A DNA stretch of 64,000 bases from positions 1 through 64,000 of IMG/VR virus record IMGVR_UViG_2974731955_000001; one strand, 5' to 3'. This document shows positions 36,739 to 48,268 of the stretch, piece after piece (position 1 is the first letter of the stretch; the number at the start of each line of letters is the position of its first letter). Source of the stretch: a virus (lineage: Duplodnaviria > Caudoviricetes). Both the position numbers and the translations under genes were made by a program. A model generated the notes under the pieces. The model did no database searches and was not told the DNA's origin. It was given only the letters and a program-made list of their open reading frames with translations.

Positions 36739-37171
36739 TTCTCTTATACAAAGCCTTTGGTACGTATTGCCTGTGAAGGTAATACGTACAATCCTCAGGA
36801 GATGACAAGCATGTGGGGCGTAAGTAAATGCATATCTATATACTTAGCTGAATACGACAGAAAGAATATAGAAATACTCGTATTTGTGTTTATGATCGTG
36901 CAGATGTAAAAATCATGCCGTTAATAAGAATTGTACTGGCAATACAATTCTGCTACAACGTAAAATATGTTAGATAGCCAATTTTAAGAAGTTTTGTGTA
37001 AAAGTTTTTTAATATTTATTTTGCAGACATAAAACTTCACAACAATTCTTGTTATTAGTTACTCACAGTACAATGTGAGTTGTTGTTAATCAACAATCGT
37101 TCATTCACAAACCTTCCCCATAGTTGTACATATGGGGACATCCTCAAAGTTATAACTTAAATTTATCAAAA

Positions 37172-38779: not shown

Positions 38780-39350
38780 AATCAGAGCTGAGAGTGTCCG
38801 AGAGGCCTCTCAGTCTCTAATTATAGCTATATGCTGTAGTTAGAGATTAATGCCACGATTTAAAACTTCCGAATCGATAGTAGGAAAAATTACTCTGAAT
38901 TAACAGAGTACTCAAGAGCCTTGAGCCAGAGTGGAAACTTTGAGCCACTGATCATGTGCCTAAGATCATTACTATCACTTGAAAAGTAACAGGATGTTAC
39001 TGCTGAATCGCTAGAACCTTGAGTCAAGACCTAGTGATAGGCTTACGTAAGTAAGTTAAGTATAGTAATGATATCAAATCACACATAGAATTAGAGCTTT
39101 AAGCCGAAGTTGATGGTTATCGTCTTTTGATGGTAATTTAAAACTTCAAATTCTATAGATCTATCAAAGGCATTTACTATAGTAATAGAGAGCTTACATG
39201 CCTAAGTATTCTTTTTGAGGAGGTAAATATGTATGCAAGCCGCATTGCGCACTCTTACAGAGTAATACACTCGCAATAAAGAAGGATACTTACTATTACT
39301 ATAGATATTTTAAAGAGAGTAAAGAGAGAGATCTCTTTACTTTCACTATC
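38780..39350 (+). ncRNA. Putative structured RNA of about 570 nt
   Basis: No ORF; nested helices CATTACTAT/ATAGTAATG and CTATAGTAATAG/CTATTACTATAG, many hairpins, recurring (A/T)GCC motif. Confidence 0.55.
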
Positions 39351-39384: not shown

Positions 39385-39463
39385 CATAGTATAAGAACTG
39401 TACTATGTCTTATTAGGTTTATTGGAAACTATTAGGACGAGGGTTCGATTCCCTCCAACTCCA
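39385..39463 (+). ncRNA. ssrA: Permuted tmRNA, acceptor piece (5' limit approximate)
   Basis: ACTATTA-GGAC-GAGGG-TTCGATT-CCCTC-CAACTCC-A, a canonical tmRNA 3' end. Confidence 0.85.
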
Positions 39464-39567
39464 CATCTTTTTAAGTTTTAATTCGGTGATGTCACGCATG
39501 AATCATGGATAAAAGAATACGGCAGTAATCGCTTCCAGTACTATAAGTTCGTAATAGTATAAGGATA

Positions 39568-39615
39568 CCTGCCACCCACGGTCAGAAGCATAGAGGTTCG
39601 ACTCCTCTTGGCAAG
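39568..39615 (+). ncRNA. Truncated tRNA-like element in tmRNA intervening segment
   Basis: TGCCA/TGGCA stem plus AGAGG-TTCGACT-CCTCT T-arm. Confidence 0.45.
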
Positions 39616-39677
39616 GGTATAAACCACTCCTAGATTAAAAGCCGCAAAGCTTCCAAGCAGGTGTGAGGCCTGCATAA

Positions 39678-39806
39678 GGGGTTGCATGGATTTGACTAGT
39701 AGTGAAAGGTAAAATAGGTTCGATTTAAAATTAAATGGCAATAACTTTGTCACAGATTATACTGCGATAGGAGCGTAATCTAACGTGCTAACTACGAAAG
39801 TGAGGG
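39678..39806 (+). ncRNA. ssrA: Permuted tmRNA, coding piece; tag frame 39737-39778 GNNFVTDYTAIGA*
   Basis: GGGGTTG-CATGGATTTGAC-TAGTAGT canonical 5' end; pairs with the acceptor piece (G3.U70); TTAAAT-GGC resume context. Confidence 0.85.
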
Positions 39807-42554: not shown

Positions 42555-43976
42555 ATGTCTAAAAATAAGAACAACAAAAACTCTCAGCAAGCAGTAGCTA
42601 CTGAGAAGGAAAAGGAGAATAAGAACGTGCAGACTACTGCACAAGTAAGTAACCCCACAAAGAAGGAGGACAAGCCAAAAGCTGATCCAAAACCTAAGAA
42701 AGATAAGGAACAGACGGCTACTCCACCACCTGCAGCAGATCCTTCAGTAATTGATGCTACTAAAACAGCAGAAGTTATTGATCCGGAACCAAAAAAGAAA
42801 TCCAATATCCCGAAGAAGATCGATCTTGCTAAGATTTCACTGACCACTAGTCAACGATTATCCGGTGATGGTTTTGCTCGTATGTTGGATGTAGCAGAGC
42901 GCTATATCTCTCGTATGAAAGCAGGTGAGCCAGCAACCATTAAGATGGAGCAGGCGTTCACTTATAATCTTGCTTGGGGCATCACAAAGATGTCAATTCA
43001 GGCTCGTGAGGAGAAGATTGAGTATGGTCTTAATGTACCGAATGATGATGTTATTGTAACTGATATCATTGATACATTCAATAGCCTTGGAGTGGCATTA
43101 GCTCCACATGTCTCTGAAGATGGCAAGCAAATGACGCTTGAGTTTCAGGAGATTAGTCCAGAAGCAGAGAAAGCAGCCAAAGAAGAGATCAAACAAGAGA
43201 AGACTCCGGTTGTTCCAGAGTTAGATCCTGACAAATGGAAGAGTGAAGACGATGCAAAGAAAGGATTATCTTATATTCTTGCAAAACAAGATCAGTCATT
43301 TCCAAATCGGTTTAATGAAACTTTATTAAAGGTTCGTACCTTTAAGAAAAATCAGGAGACAGATGAAGAAAAAAAGGCTGTATGGGACAAGATTGGTTTA
43401 GGTGCCCTATTCGAGAACGCAGTTCAACTATTAGGAAACCGCTCAACTGCTCTTGTTCGTGGATTATGTCAAGGATGTGTATCTGCCTTAATTACGGATC
43501 ACAATCCGATATTTGCTCATTCAACAGTTAAGTATAACTTACCAATGTTGTCTGAGGAAGAGGCCGCTGACTTGATTAAATCCTTTATTAAAGTACGTCA
43601 GGAAGATCCTAAACTTCCTATTGACGAGACTCCAGCTGTTAAGTTTGGTATTCTTGAGGCAACTCGTGAACAGTTCCTTAACATTCCAATGGATAACGAA
43701 ATGCCGTTAGCCGAAATGGGATTGAAGAAGGATGATCCAAAGTACAAACAGATTACTCTGGCTAAGAAGATTATGAATAAGTTCCTTGAAGCGTATGGAA
43801 ATGAAATCGGATATGATGATCCGAAATTCTATTTACATGCGACTAACAAGATGATCGAAATTCGTAATCTATATGTCGATAAAGATGCGGCATTTACACC
43901 GTATACTGAAAGTGAATATCCAAAAACTACTTCTACGGAAACTGCAGATCCTGAGAAGAAGAAAGAGGGTAAGTAA
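42555..43976 (+). CDS. Hypothetical 473-aa protein with disordered N-terminus
   Basis: Long ORF, Lys/Pro-rich N-terminus, helical core. Confidence 0.75.
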   Translation: MSKNKNNKNSQQAVATEKEKENKNVQTTAQVSNPTKKEDKPKADPKPKKDKEQTATPPPAADPSVIDATKTAEVIDPEPKKKSNIPKKIDLAKISLTTSQRLSGDGFARMLDVAERYISRMKAGEPATIKMEQAFTYNLAWGITKMSIQAREEKIEYGLNVPNDDVIVTDIIDTFNSLGVALAPHVSEDGKQMTLEFQEISPEAEKAAKEEIKQEKTPVVPELDPDKWKSEDDAKKGLSYILAKQDQSFPNRFNETLLKVRTFKKNQETDEEKKAVWDKIGLGALFENAVQLLGNRSTALVRGLCQGCVSALITDHNPIFAHSTVKYNLPMLSEEEAADLIKSFIKVRQEDPKLPIDETPAVKFGILEATREQFLNIPMDNEMPLAEMGLKKDDPKYKQITLAKKIMNKFLEAYGNEIGYDDPKFYLHATNKMIEIRNLYVDKDAAFTPYTESEYPKTTSTETADPEKKKEGK

Positions 43977-44002
43977 GTAATTATTATTAAACCATTATCA
44001 AA

Positions 44003-44404
44003 ATGAATACACATGGTAATCTACTTACGTATATCGCATTTGCTATTGTAGGTTTATTATTAGCTTACAATACGAACTTCTTTAAATTAGAGGAAGTTCG
44101 GGCAGACCCAGTAAAACCACTAGATTTGCCCGCATTACAGTTTAATCCTAAAGCTAATTTATCTTTAGAGATTGATCTAGACAAAGGTGTTTCCAACGTA
44201 AAAAGCGATATGCCGATTGCTAACGTTGATGTCACTGTCAATCACCCCACGAAACTCGTGGAAAAGGTAGTAAAGAAACCATCTAAGAAGGAGGTAATAT
44301 ATGAAACAAAAACTGAATATTTGGAGAAAGTAGTGATGTTTACTCTACCTACTCCTCACTTTCACGTACCAAGTATTCAGATCCCTAAAAGCGTAGAGAG
44401 ATGA
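44003..44404 (+). CDS. Membrane-anchored hypothetical protein
   Basis: N-terminal TM helix. Confidence 0.65.
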   Translation: MNTHGNLLTYIAFAIVGLLLAYNTNFFKLEEVRADPVKPLDLPALQFNPKANLSLEIDLDKGVSNVKSDMPIANVDVTVNHPTKLVEKVVKKPSKKEVIYETKTEYLEKVVMFTLPTPHFHVPSIQIPKSVER

Positions 44405-44496
44405 AAGCAAATAATAATACATTAGATAAATTAGCATTTGTAGGCTTAATTATCTTCTTTATAATGTGTTTATTTTTTGCATGGTGTATAACATAA
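44401..44496 (+). CDS. 31-aa single-TM peptide
   Basis: MKANNNTLDKLAFVGLIIFFIMCLFFAWCIT; ATGA overlap. Confidence 0.5.
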   Translation: MKANNNTLDKLAFVGLIIFFIMCLFFAWCIT

Positions 44497-46900
44497 CAGT
44501 TAAAGATAAAAGCTGTCAGGTCAAACGACTCCTTACCTGTAATAAGAAGAAGAAGAGTGATATTGTAGCTGTACACTTAAAAAGCAATAAGATAGCGCAT
44601 ATTATATTTGGATGAGTCTGATCAACAAATCGTATAATATGGACAAGAAAGACAGGATACGAGGATATGATAGTGCTAACACACGATTCAAAAGGTAGTA
44701 TGATAACTTATTAAGAGTATTTTTTCTTTTACTCAGAAAAATTAATAAGAAAATGGGTAAGTGTAGATATCAACCCATTCTATTTATATATTGAGAACCG
44801 CTTGGAGAATATATAAATTAGAGAAGACACTTATTAATACTTATCGATAAAGTAGAGAACTATTAATATAAACGATACCGGAGTATGCTTAAGCAGCTAC
44901 CAATAATATTTAGTGACAGTAAATATTATTATGTCTAGAGTAAAGACAGTAGTCAACTTCGTTAAGAGTCCGTGGAGGAAACCAATCCTGAAATCAAGAA
45001 GGGACTTTAAACAGCAACTGCAACTATCACAAAGGGTGATAGAATTACTCAACAAAGAACTGACTAAGTTCCAGGTAGTGTCCAAAGCTACCTTACTGAA
45101 TCCATTTTAATTAATTTGGATAGGTTAAATAAATTGCTATCTTAGTGTTCACTGCATCAGTTTTGAAACGCTTATATGAAAGAATATAGGGAAAATGTAG
45201 TTATGAAGGAGATTAGATATAATAGAGGGTGCTATAAGGTGCTACGAGTCTAAATAGAGTAGAATCAATTTCTACAACTTTTACTCTTGGAAGTAAAGGT
45301 TAATAGTAGGTATTACTAGTAAGATTCATATGGCTGAGAGGCTATGATCCATACATGGGAAAGTAGATAATCGAGACTATCTATGGATATTGTATGACAG
45401 ATTATCCGGATTAGGTGCCAAACCTATACTTTATAGAACTATTATATCAAACGTGATAGTGTTTTCTGCAATTGAGTTATATCACGATAAAATAATGGAA
45501 ACGCAGAGGTTTGAAGAAGTGAGCCAAATCATTAGTTCATATTATAGAATATATCTGGCAAGTATAGTATATAAGGAGAAACTTATATTTTATCTATAGT
45601 AAGTTTAATCCACTTAATACGAATCTTTACGTCAGTAACACAGCTGTTGGTTGATATCCATAAATTGTGCAAAGTTCAGTTAAAGCTTTCCTTAAAATAT
45701 ACAGCGAAAGTAGGGCTTCGTGAATAAGCCAATGGGCTAAATTCAAGTCTATGAAAGTAGAGCTACTGAATCTAACGATTCATCACTGGCCCGAGAGTTA
45801 ACGAGACTCTTAAATAAAAGCGTTATTAACATGTTTAACCAAAGTAGTGGCTACACCCACGAAATAGTAAATTATCGAGAAGTCCTCGCTGGTCTTATTA
45901 TAGTGAATGAGCTACTGTTGTTAAGTAGAGAGTAACTTAGGATGAATGCGACTCGATCAAGCCAACCGTTATAGCTAAAAGAAAACTATTAGAGTTATAT
46001 TACCGCAATGATATAATGTTCAATAGAAAGCGTTTCGCAGAAGCTTATAGACCTTTAGACCTGTCGTAAGCAAGAGTAAGCGGAAATAGGTGAAAGTCCT
46101 AGATATTCGTGCTTGTAAAACAAACAAATCCTCGTAAGGGTCACATGGGCAGTATACTGCATGTGAAAGAATAGAGTGGTAACCACTTCAGGGTGAAAAG
46201 ACTGAAAGAGTTAGGTTTAGTAACGTTTCCTTAAACGACCGTATGTGTGGAGCATTCGATAAAGTAATCCTATGTGGTTTATTATAACTATCAGTATACT
46301 TAGGCCAATCTAAGGTATACACACTTTCTAGTGTATTTGTTTTGATAAGATTATAATAGTTCGCTGAAGAAGCTCAGGAATTTATAAAACTAGTAGCATG
46401 TGCATATCCCTATCAATATACAGCGGTAGAAGATAGTAAATAACGTATTGATCTTGTGACTTATTAGTCAATGTCGTAAGATCTCATTAGTCTGATGTTG
46501 GGCAAACGTAGTGGACCATTTAGGCCATGACACGAACCTTCATTGACGAGTATGAAGAGTAAAGAAAGATTCTAAAGTAAGACTAGTTCCATAATCTGTG
46601 GTGATGAAAACACAGTATTTAAGAAGAGGAAGTATCTACTTAAATATGTCTCTATGGAGTGCTAGAGTAATAGCAATAGCAGAATTACAGAGTGAAATAG
46701 AATCCAATCTATCTCATCAAGTATAAAGAAATAATTTCAAGGAGTAAGCAATTGAATTTGCGTAGGCGATCGGATAACAGGCAACTGGGCAACAAACTCC
46801 CCTATAAGAGAAAACTCCAGTAAAGAAGTTCTTTTTATTTTTGAGTTTATTAATTTTTTAACAACATTTTAAAAGTTTCGTTGGTGGAATCAACCACGAA
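44497..46900 (+). ncRNA. Putative very large structured RNA or RNA cluster (about 2.4 kb)
   Basis: No credible ORF; dense succession of hairpins plus long-range helices (see findings). Confidence 0.6.
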
Positions 46901-46918
46901 ATCAAGGAGGAAACAATT

Positions 46919-47452
46919 ATGAATTATATTCGAGTAAATGCCGCCATTTGCGGTTCAGTATTAGGTAAAAAGATTCTAATCGTAGAACGGAATCCAGTAG
47001 ATCCAAATTATTCAGAGGATAAGAAAAACGGACGGTTGTGTCTCAGTCGCCCTATTTATCTTTATTCTATTAAGCCGATTGATGTATCTTCAGTCGAGCT
47101 TGTAACTACAGCAAATGGTGAGGAACGGATTGAGTTTAATCATGAGCCGACATTACGGCTAGATATTGCAAATGTTGAGGATATCAATAAAGTAATTCCC
47201 GTTCCATCGGCAGCCAGTGTACGTGCAGCTATTGAGAAGTACGAACGGTCTAAAGAAGATATTACTATCTTCGTCGATTACGAAAAATTATTACGGGAAG
47301 TAATTGCGCTAAATCTTGACGAGAAGAAGACTTATGCAGCATGGTTGTCTTATCAGATGAAGTTGTGCGGCACATTAGCCGAGGCAAACGAAGCTGAGAT
47401 TGCAGCTTGTAAAGCGAGTATGAAAGAGTTTGGAATTGAGATTAATCTTTAA
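46919..47452 (+). CDS. Hypothetical protein
   Basis: 177 aa; AAGGAGG upstream. Confidence 0.7.
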   Translation: MNYIRVNAAICGSVLGKKILIVERNPVDPNYSEDKKNGRLCLSRPIYLYSIKPIDVSSVELVTTANGEERIEFNHEPTLRLDIANVEDINKVIPVPSAASVRAAIEKYERSKEDITIFVDYEKLLREVIALNLDEKKTYAAWLSYQMKLCGTLAEANEAEIAACKASMKEFGIEINL

Positions 47453-47457
47453 TCGCA

Positions 47458-47988
47458 ATGGATGCCCTAAGTAAATGGGCATGGTTCGATCTTTGTTATA
47501 TGTTCTCTGATAGAGATTTTGTTAGTGATATGCTAGAAACAGATGAGAAAGTTCTAGCAAAACATGTTACGGTAAACAAAGATGGATCAGTGACTCTAAA
47601 AAAAACAAAATATTCTTGGATTAATAAATTATTCCGAGGTGAGATTGTACTCAGTCCAGAGACAATTTGTCTTCGACTGATTAGGAAAGTAACCGGTTAC
47701 GGTGGTGGTCGAAATGACGCTGCATACAATGATTTGTGTCAACGTTTTTCTGAATATTATAAAGACGGAAATTATAGTTTGGCTATTTCCGCAATATTTG
47801 TGGCTTATCGTTTTGTTCTAGCTCCAGATATAAAACAAATGCAAGAGAATAATCCCGTAGTTGAGAGAGGGGTTATTCGTAAAAATTCAAATGTTTTATT
47901 AAATGGAGTTATGGTAAAAGACGGTTCAGGTCAAGCTGTTGTAGTTGATTGGTCTGATCCCAATCAAATTCTATTTCGTCGTCCATAA
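47458..47988 (+). CDS. Hypothetical protein
   Basis: 176 aa ORF. Confidence 0.7.
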   Translation: MDALSKWAWFDLCYMFSDRDFVSDMLETDEKVLAKHVTVNKDGSVTLKKTKYSWINKLFRGEIVLSPETICLRLIRKVTGYGGGRNDAAYNDLCQRFSEYYKDGNYSLAISAIFVAYRFVLAPDIKQMQENNPVVERGVIRKNSNVLLNGVMVKDGSGQAVVVDWSDPNQILFRRP

Positions 47989-48268
47989 AAATCGACAATC
48001 CTAAGTAAGAATAATATTGACAGTAGATGAGTTTTGTTAATATTATATCTTACTCAAGATATTTACTAAAAGAGAGACAGATGAGTTACGTCTCTCTTTA
48101 AATATGGACGTGATAATGTATCTGTAATGGATACTAAGTAGATGGCTAGCTCCAAGAATAAGACGGAGATGCTATATCGAGGATAGACACGTCCTCACGG
48201 GTAGTTGATCAAATTCAAGTATAAATCGATTTAGACAAGATGAGTATTAATTTAAAATCAATTTGTAT

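Follow-up and report, generated by a model that had tools for sequence, protein, structure and literature searches.

A conserved, non-coding structured RNA element of about 2 kb in crAss-like phages of the family Suoliviridae

The window analysed here covers the first 64 000 nucleotides (nt) of IMG/VR record IMGVR_UViG_2974731955_000001, a phage genome that is complete at 98.8 kb and bears direct terminal repeats. The closest named relatives of this phage are the uncultured crAss-like phages cr55_1, cr1_1 and cr10_1 (Crassvirales, Suoliviridae, Boorivirinae). Its left arm (1-32 kb) is transcribed leftward and carries large late genes, and all genes from ~33 kb on are read rightward (+), the divergent arm switch lying near 32-33 kb. 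A gap without open reading frames (ORFs), positions 44497-46900, sits within the rightward early/middle arm. The operon directly 5' of the gap encodes a sigma factor of the extracytoplasmic function (ECF) type, three unknown proteins and a 31-amino acid (aa) membrane peptide, and because the ORF for this peptide ends at 44496 the non-coding stretch starts at 44497. On the 3' side two proteins without assigned function are followed by a tRNA-Ser gene at 50.1 kb (50085, 3.2 kb downstream of the gap), and transfer-messenger RNA (tmRNA) and tRNA genes lie at 39.4-39.9 kb, 4.6 kb upstream. We conclude that the gap holds a genuine new large structured RNA element; its parts and boundary markers are listed in Table 1.

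The longest ORF in the gap was 69 aa under translation table 11, and no long frame opened when TAG or TAA was decoded as Gln or TGA as Trp, in agreement with the first-pass annotation, which had seen no credible ORFs over 2.4 kb. Stop-to-stop frames in the homologous gaps of relatives were short and their positions were not conserved, nor were small ORFs kept across clades. For a coding test the window was aligned to a clade-B relative that is 84% identical. The 411 substitutions in the gap were distributed over the three codon phases as 138/146/127 (p = 0.51), no 300-nt sub-window of the gap showed 3-nt periodicity, and nearly all of the ~36 insertions and deletions (indels) were of 1-2 nt. 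The flanking ORFs had an excess of third-position substitutions (p = 1e-8 to 1e-23), except for a short, well-conserved ORF of 133 aa (p = 0.13), and indels within them were multiples of 3, the few other lengths falling between genes. Since the phase distribution was flat, the indels were of 1-2 nt and no 300-nt window was periodic, coding is excluded whatever the genetic code, and so are genes of appreciable size that are frameshifted or split by introns. The marks of a protein-coding gene (an open frame, 3-periodic substitutions and indels in multiples of three) were not found in the gap, and coding under an alternative code or with frameshifts, which the first-pass annotation had named as a possible refutation, left no signal in codes, periodicity or indels. 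Two coding sequences are publicly annotated as 'hypothetical protein' within homologous gaps, one of 53 aa in cr125_1 (L166:1589-1750) and one of 61 aa in cr10_1 (L005:3603-3788); as the gap lacks a coding signal, both calls are probably spurious.

The gap DNA was 81-82% identical to that of clade B over its full length, compared with 67% identity for the downstream protein. In 250-nt bins, identity to clade B was 0.72-0.94 across the gap and 0.56-0.80 in the flanking genes, and the last part of the gap (46501-46900) was 85-90% identical between clades A and B. We conclude that the gap is under purifying selection and is more conserved than the neighbouring genes.

A homologue search of IMG/VR, with a flanking protein and a 21-nt core motif as queries, recovered more than 70 contigs with the gap, representing ~9 lineages with pairwise gap identities of 47-84%. 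The order in all recovered contigs was sigma factor, a protein of ~130 aa, one of ~480-510 aa, one of ~125-139 aa, the gap of 2.0-2.4 kb, a protein of ~180-196 aa and one of ~175 aa. The same synteny was found across four Suoliviridae subfamilies and at least nine lineages: Boorivirinae (cr55_1, cr1_1, cr10_1), Uncouvirinae (cr125_1, cr114_1, cr115_1), Bearivirinae (cr6_1) and Loutivirinae (cr52_1). The element kept the same location in every lineage, and no empty site was encountered. GenBank records of the named relatives leave the gap blank or place one tiny 'hypothetical protein' in it. A covariance model of the segment that we call core 1 (model R1) matched every Suoliviridae lineage tested, each genome exactly once and within the gap, with matches in the window, cr125_1, cr115_1, cr52_1 (42 bits) and cr6_1 (33 bits). 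The model had no match in crAss001 (Steigviridae), whose annotation contains no gap above ~0.9 kb. The structured element has a family-wide distribution and is probably a hallmark of Suoliviridae, and because the core 1 model matches once per genome in every Suoliviridae lineage tested and not in crAss001, it may serve as a marker of the family.

Conserved structure was assessed by domain. Consensus structures were derived with RNAalifold, and pairs with changes on both sides were counted against shuffles (n = 500) and slid controls. The 19 pairs of core 1 (alignment A4; 16 sequences, at least 10 lineages) were 97.9% paired, and both-side changes numbered 8 compared with 3.0 ± 1.1 in the shuffles (none of the 500 reached this count) and 0-2 in the slid controls. 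Core 2 (alignment A5; 10 sequences) yielded 61 pairs in 11 helices, 96.3% paired, with 29 both-side changes against 13.1 ± 2.2 (0 of 500) and 6 in each slid control. The 5' domain (alignment A8) yielded 41 pairs, 96.4% paired, with 21 both-side changes against 7.6 ± 1.7 (0 of 500) and 1-6 when slid. Together the three formally tested domains comprise 121 pairs over ~800 nt, 58 of them with both-side changes. Two further segments, aligned from 10 sequences each, were assessed by consensus fold and pair count: 44795-45325 (A10) had 18 common pairs, half of them with both-side changes (9 pairs; consensus energy -19.0, covariation term -4.4), and 46110-46500 (A11) had 21 common pairs, 16 with both-side changes (consensus -13.0, covariation term -4.7). 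Across the RNA domains, consensus energies ranged from -11.5 to -35.7 kcal/mol and covariation terms from -2.0 to -7.1. The downstream gene, taken as a coding control from the same genomes through the same pipeline, reached only -3.9 kcal/mol in an alignment of 573 columns; its covariation term was +0.03, and many of the pairs were broken. No cross-lineage consensus structure was obtained for 46501-46900 (-1.9 kcal/mol, covariation term 0).

A census that assumed no structure was also carried out, in which stacks of at least 5 pairs were counted if they were paired in every sequence and had at least 2 both-side changes. The plus strand contained 12 antiparallel and 1 parallel stacks, and the minus strand 4 antiparallel and 5 parallel. 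One helix, 45874-79/45952-57, takes a different form in each of four clades (ATCGAG/CTCGAT, TTGAGG/CCTCAA, CCAGGG/CCTTGG and TTGTGG/CCACAA). Both core 1 and core 2 contain invariant G.U/U.G pairs, and the consensus energies of the plus strand were lower than those of the minus strand (-445 vs -381; -342 vs -314). We assign the structure to the plus strand because of the invariant G.U/U.G pairs, the asymmetry of the census, the lower consensus energy and the plus orientation of all neighbouring genes; the preference for this strand in the first-pass annotation is borne out by the invariant G.U/U.G pairs. Compensated pairs beyond the controls and on one strand, by which structured non-coding RNAs (ncRNAs) are generally recognized, were found here. 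From these data we conclude that a conserved secondary structure on the plus strand is maintained by covariation over ~2 kb.

The structured core proper spans ~44540-46500 and, at ~2.0 kb, is as long as the whole gap in the other subfamilies. It comprises at least 35 helices maintained in evolution, which are arranged in modular domains. The expansion segment is set apart between clades by ~130-nt indels; its hairpins 44902-11/44920-29 and 45024-30/45036-42 are lineage-specific, the latter being compensated between the window and the relative L006. Core 1 contains the invariant single-stranded sequence GCUGAGWGGCUAUG, and its helix P2 encloses a hypervariable hairpin. The linker carries an insertion of ~100-130 nt in clades D/F/H/E (alignment A3); its hairpin 45452/45481 occurs as three sequence variants in three clades, and the other linker hairpins are compensated between clades A and B. 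Within core 2, a closed multibranch (45958-62/46111-15) encloses three helices, including 46033-38/46080-85 and the hairpin 46087-90/46098-101 with the invariant loop UGAAAGU. The 3' hairpin series is also A/B-compensated, and its hairpin 46479-82/46490-93 has the invariant loop CUCAUUA. The tail contains two A/B-compensated hairpins, 46596-600/46611-15 and 46876/46893, the second of which sits just before the ribosome binding site (RBS) of the next gene. Throughout the element near-invariant blocks (GCUGAGWGGCUAUG, UUAUCCGGA, GGUGAAAGUCCU and the loop CUCAUUA) alternate with variable segments and insertions of 100-130 nt, an alternation that recalls expansion segments. Invariant single strands cannot show covariation.

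Table 1. Positions of the RNA element, its parts, its boundary markers and the upstream ncRNA genes in the window
Feature	Position	Strand	Remarks
Conserved non-coding structured RNA core	44497..46500	+	~2.0 kb; no ORFs, covariation
5' domain	44540..44800	+	8 helices, including 44568-72/44592-96, 44598-607/44632-41, 44707-13/44743-49
Variable 'expansion' segment	44800..45320	+	conserved hairpins 44969-74/45001-06 (inner 44977-80/44987-90) and 45073-79/45087-93
Core 1	45321..45433	+	P1 45345-49/45400-04 (invariant G.U), P2 45350-54/45392-96, P4 45412-16/45422-26
Linker segment	45434..45689	+	hairpins 45452-57/45481-86, 45518-22/45529-33, 45541-48/45593-600
Core 2 multi-helix domain	45690..46125	+	45734-39/45787-92 (encloses 45767-72/45777-82), 45793-97/45807-11, 45874-79/45952-57
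3' hairpin series	46126..46500	+	46142-46/46161-66, 46294-301/46313-20, 46356-67/46374-83, 46479-82/46490-93
Lineage-variable tail	46501..46900	+	~400 nt; T-rich tract ~46826-46860, then hairpin 46876-85/46893-901
31-aa membrane-peptide ORF	44401..44496	+	5' boundary marker, outside the RNA core
Syntenic downstream gene, 177 aa	46919..47452	+	3' boundary marker; after the gap in every lineage
Hatchet ribozyme, RAGATH-22, permuted tmRNA and tRNAs	34.4-39.9 kb		upstream of the gap, same rightward arm
Permuted tmRNA	39410-39778		Rfam model

Several individual helices had been named in the first-pass annotation. The local hairpins 44598/44633, 45024/45036, 45073/45087, 46142/46160, 46596/46611 and 46876/46893 proved to be compensated and 46087/46098 partly so; 44902/44920 and 46538/46552 were lineage-specific or weak. 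The long-range helices proposed to close domains (44588/45135, 45382/45654 and 46117/46336) did not survive the comparison, as their pairs were lost with divergence and never compensated. The larger idea of a candidate giant ncRNA was partly supported: the region is non-coding, under purifying selection and has covarying plus-strand structure over ~2 kb. Its last ~400 nt lack cross-lineage structure.

Searches with cmscan against Rfam 15 covered the whole window at gathering thresholds and positions 44000-47400 at E<=10. The latter returned chance-level hits to CRISPR-DR4 and SNORD15 only. No match in the gap was obtained for group I or group II introns, RNase P, rRNA, tmRNA, GOLLD, ROOL, OLE or self-cleaving ribozymes, so that the earlier remark that the region carries no group I, group II, RNase P or rRNA signature holds for the Rfam 15 models, and the cmscan comparison suggested there found no family match within the region. 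The block GGUGAAAGUCCU resembles the P4 strand of RNase P only superficially. A group I or group II intron was rejected, as no intron model matched at E<=10 and there is no interrupted gene: because the upstream ORFs end in stop codons and the downstream ORF has its own RBS (AAGGAGG), ATG and conserved N-terminus, the element interrupts no gene. A template RNA for a reverse transcriptase (of a diversity-generating retroelement, a retron or a defence-associated reverse transcriptase) was rejected as well, since the only reverse transcriptase of this genome lies ~51 kb away and has its own adenine-specific pair of template and variable repeats. A link to the UG/Abi reverse transcriptases was likewise dropped, because the published work (PMC9226505) concerns other phage families. 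We found no prior description of the region in the searchable literature, and neither the comparative paper on crAss-like genomes (PMC7886860) nor the Crassvirales review (PMC10136315) contains anything on it.

Among the large RNAs already described, GOLLD is one of the closest parallels to the element. It is a large, elaborate ncRNA of phages and prophages with a tRNA neighbourhood and unknown function, made up of a conserved and a less conserved part joined by a variable linker (PMC12286853). The element described here resembles it in its phage location, in its modular build with variable segments, and in having a tmRNA/tRNA cluster on one side and a tRNA on the other. However, it is 2.0-2.4 kb long compared with roughly 800 nt for GOLLD, matches no GOLLD model at E<=10, lies 3-5 kb from the tRNA and tmRNA genes rather than adjacent to them, and is so far confined to one crAss-like family; no pseudoknots or long-range helices were detected in it. 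ROOL is encoded by phages and prophages, is associated with gut and rumen, and has a complex structure, no known protein partner and an unknown function (PMC12286853; PMC5737381). The present element shares the phage location, the gut association and the complex structure. It differs in having no Rfam ROOL match, in being several times longer, and in consisting of local hairpins and two multibranch domains as opposed to a pseudoknotted compact fold. ROOL is ~0.6 kb long; OLE, also ~0.6 kb, is a chromosomal RNA of extremophilic Firmicutes. A distinguishing trait of GOLLD and ROOL is their assembly into homo-oligomeric nanocages through kissing loops. The likeness to OLE is the presence of membrane-protein genes as neighbours, here the genes for the 31-aa transmembrane peptide and for a transmembrane-anchored protein of 133 aa directly upstream, but there was no Rfam OLE match and no partners resembling OapA, OapB or OapC were identified among the neighbours. 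Group I introns in core genes and recoding of TAG in late genes have been reported for Suoliviridae (PMC10136315). These self-splicing introns are likewise large structured RNAs and are frequent in the family (PMC10136315), whereas the element matches no intron model, interrupts no gene and has a fixed location in all lineages.

How the element is transcribed and where the transcript ends, its existence as one stable molecule, its partners and its function are matters of inference. Our best explanation, held with moderate confidence, is that the gap specifies a very large, undescribed structured ncRNA of the plus strand that serves as a stable RNA or ribonucleoprotein (RNP) scaffold of early/middle infection. 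Its transcription would run rightward along with that of the early/middle genes, 3' of the operon of the phage sigma factor, and during infection it would build up in the Bacteroidales host cell, either as a stable RNA or within an RNA-protein particle. There it could have a role in trans, serving as a scaffold, as a decoy or to sequester other molecules, as proposed for the phage-borne GOLLD and ROOL RNAs, which occur in a tRNA-island context and whose functions are unknown (PMC12286853). Its predicted modular order is 5' domain, variable expansion segment, almost invariant core 1, multibranch core 2 and 3' hairpin series, after which the lineage-variable tail of ~400 nt would run into the RBS of the next gene.

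A single giant ncRNA molecule is plausible. That the 2.0-2.4 kb are transcribed as one stable molecule, forming an RNA or RNP particle with a role in infection lacking a described counterpart, is possible, though we would put it somewhat below an even chance. If so, it would exceed in size every structured non-ribosomal RNA so far known from bacteria or phages, GOLLD by a factor of 2.5-3, and the size range of structured non-ribosomal RNAs of prokaryotes would grow about threefold. Large ornate RNAs (OLE, GOLLD, ROOL) are rare. Recent work has revealed that they form unexpected assemblies made of RNA only, and what they do is still an open question. The element is a new and much larger class, and its place in current annotations is either empty or taken by small ORFs that are probably spurious. 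It occurs in one of the most abundant groups of human-gut phages, which has no cultured member (PMC10136315), and it offers a target with domain boundaries and a covariation-backed structure over ~800 nt.

Several results weigh against a single giant molecule or limit the strength of the structural statistics. The supported helices are almost all local, with a median span of 17 nt; long-range stacks were not enriched in the census (7 vs 9 and 7 vs 6); and no pseudoknot or domain-joining helix was detected that would so far link the domains in one fold. Scans for sigma-70-type promoters and intrinsic terminators at the gap returned chance-level results with nothing standing out at its edges, and a search for the Bacteroidota TAnnTTTG motifs found no conserved internal site. 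The effective number of independent lineages is ~9, which makes the per-pair statistics modest. Folding energy was also weaker in the gap than in the flanking mRNA: mean z-scores of the minimum free energy (MFE), calculated in 200-nt windows on both strands, were -0.79 (+) and -0.70 (-) for the gap and -2.02 (+) and -1.34 (-) for the coding flanks. The first-pass description of a hairpin-saturated region with near-continuous stems was therefore not upheld, the gap being less stable than its flanks; many short stems seen by eye in 2.4 kb at 33% G+C are the chance expectation. RNAalifold applied to the whole gap did exceed column shuffles (energy -445 vs ~-370; 63 vs 22 pairs), but the coding flanks beat the same null, and for this reason it carries no weight in our argument. 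When only clades A and B were compared, some antiparallel excess was seen in the coding flanks as well, which makes A/B-only tests weakly specific. Sliding-window structure conservation indices and column-shuffle z-scores were not discriminating. Because the column-shuffle null is too easy and the A/B-only census is weakly specific, the case rests on the multi-lineage alignments.

The locality of the helices is what a tandem cluster of independent structured RNAs would look like, such as small RNAs, riboregulators or ribozymes cut from one precursor or separately transcribed. The modules are separable, no covarying long-range helix joins them, segments with ~130-nt indels lie between the conserved cores, and the same phage arm carries several discrete ncRNAs (Hatchet, RAGATH-22, tmRNA, tRNAs). 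We consider such a cluster a possible but rather unlikely alternative, as a search of 44000-47400 for internal promoters, terminators, ribozymes and tRNA-like processing signals was negative and no module matches any Rfam family at E<=10; moreover, module order and the total length of 2.0-2.4 kb are kept in four subfamilies, which is easier to understand if the element is selected as one unit. The lack of a clear terminator or promoter, together with co-oriented, tightly abutting genes on both sides, is also what would be seen if the gap were a cis-acting part of a polycistronic mRNA, either an intercistronic spacer or a giant 5' leader that controls timing, stability or translation and has no function in trans. 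A compensated hairpin right before the downstream RBS fits this as well, and the flanking mRNA is itself structured (z ~-2, with a covarying hairpin in ORF 44003-44404). We regard a purely cis-acting role as improbable. No known leader or spacer comes near a strongly conserved multi-domain structure of 2 kb with near-invariant single strands. Conservation is lowest in 46500-46900, the part nearest to the gene that would be regulated, and the most conserved cores lie 0.8-1.6 kb away from that gene on its upstream side.

Single-stranded DNA would also form hairpins for which the evidence is Watson-Crick covariation only, and a DNA-level element (an origin of replication, a site for packaging or recombination, or hairpins of single-stranded DNA) could in principle account for them. 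This is very improbable, since both the invariant G.U/U.G pairs and the difference between strands in the census fit an RNA of one strand. Searches of the region for repeats and iterons gave short chance matches only, there was no GC-skew inflection at the gap, the divergent arm switch is elsewhere (near 32-33 kb), and 2 kb is far larger than known phage origins are. The TAG recoding of late genes and the group I introns reported for Suoliviridae (PMC10136315) make it reasonable to ask about a cryptic or decayed coding sequence, with an unusual code, frameshifting or introns, or a recent pseudogene. We give this hardly any credence. No frame opened under TAG=Q, TGA=W or TAA=Q, the 300-nt windows showed no 3-periodicity, 1-2 nt indels were many, no intron model matched and the same state was found in four subfamilies; conservation above that of real genes indicates that the sequence is not decaying. 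A large structured ncRNA of the plus strand remains our preferred account of the gap.

The genes on both sides of the element were also examined. The hydrophobic ORF at its 5' boundary (31-32 aa) is conserved at the protein level in clades A, C and D despite sequence divergence, and clade H has another small transmembrane ORF in its place; 44401-44496 is thus probably a real small membrane-protein gene that public annotations of the relatives have missed. The gene at the 3' boundary shows 3-periodic substitutions. Among the flanking proteins, only the sigma factor could be assigned to a Pfam or PHROG family. AlphaFold models of the 177-aa protein (pLDDT, the predicted local distance difference test score, 86) and of the syntenic 473-aa protein (42555-43976) had no significant Foldseek or VIA match. 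The 473-aa protein has a disordered Lys/Pro/Glu-rich N-terminal tail of ~134 aa, a small alpha/beta domain and then helical repeats; the alpha/beta domain matches nucleic-acid-binding folds of the Alba, R3H and KhpB types below threshold only, and these matches, for residues 125-215 at Z 5-6, are below noise level and serve as a lead only. The idea that this protein is a Ro60/TROVE homologue, prompted by Gp96 of crAss001, was unsupported. An 8-bp hairpin (44317-44324/44369-44376) lies inside the 3' end of the coding ORF 44003-44404. It is wholly compensated between clades (ATATTTGG/CCAAGTAT vs GGTACAAA/TTTGTACC), with G.U variants too, so that conserved RNA structure overlaps coding sequence here.

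The rightward arm is unusually rich in ncRNAs. Rfam gathering-level matches to the Hatchet ribozyme, RAGATH-22 and a permuted tmRNA lie at 36791-36918, 38788-38954 and 39410-39778, 5-8 kb upstream of the gap, and cr125_1 and cr115_1 have a tRNA-Leu gene ~1.3 kb downstream of it. At ~47800-48100, adjoining an unannotated intergenic stretch of 275 nt (47989-48262), local folding gave z-scores between -3 and -5.6 on either strand, and 47400-48260 may be another structured element. As a rule, though, the coding flanks fold more stably than shuffled sequence. Beyond the window, the reverse transcriptase is encoded at 97464-98036 (-) of the genome (PF00078, 62.8 bits, in a 347-aa ORF). Next to it is an imperfect 66-nt repeat pair (segment L170: 2477-2542/2750-2815) whose differences are nearly all at one base, A on the strand of the reverse transcriptase gene; judged by these features, the enzyme and its template/variable repeat pair are a diversity-generating retroelement. 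The largest unannotated gap of crAss001, ~0.9 kb (record 95964-96870), adjoins the gene for the 472-aa TROVE/Ro60-like Gp96, and may be a natural place for a Y-RNA-like partner of that protein.

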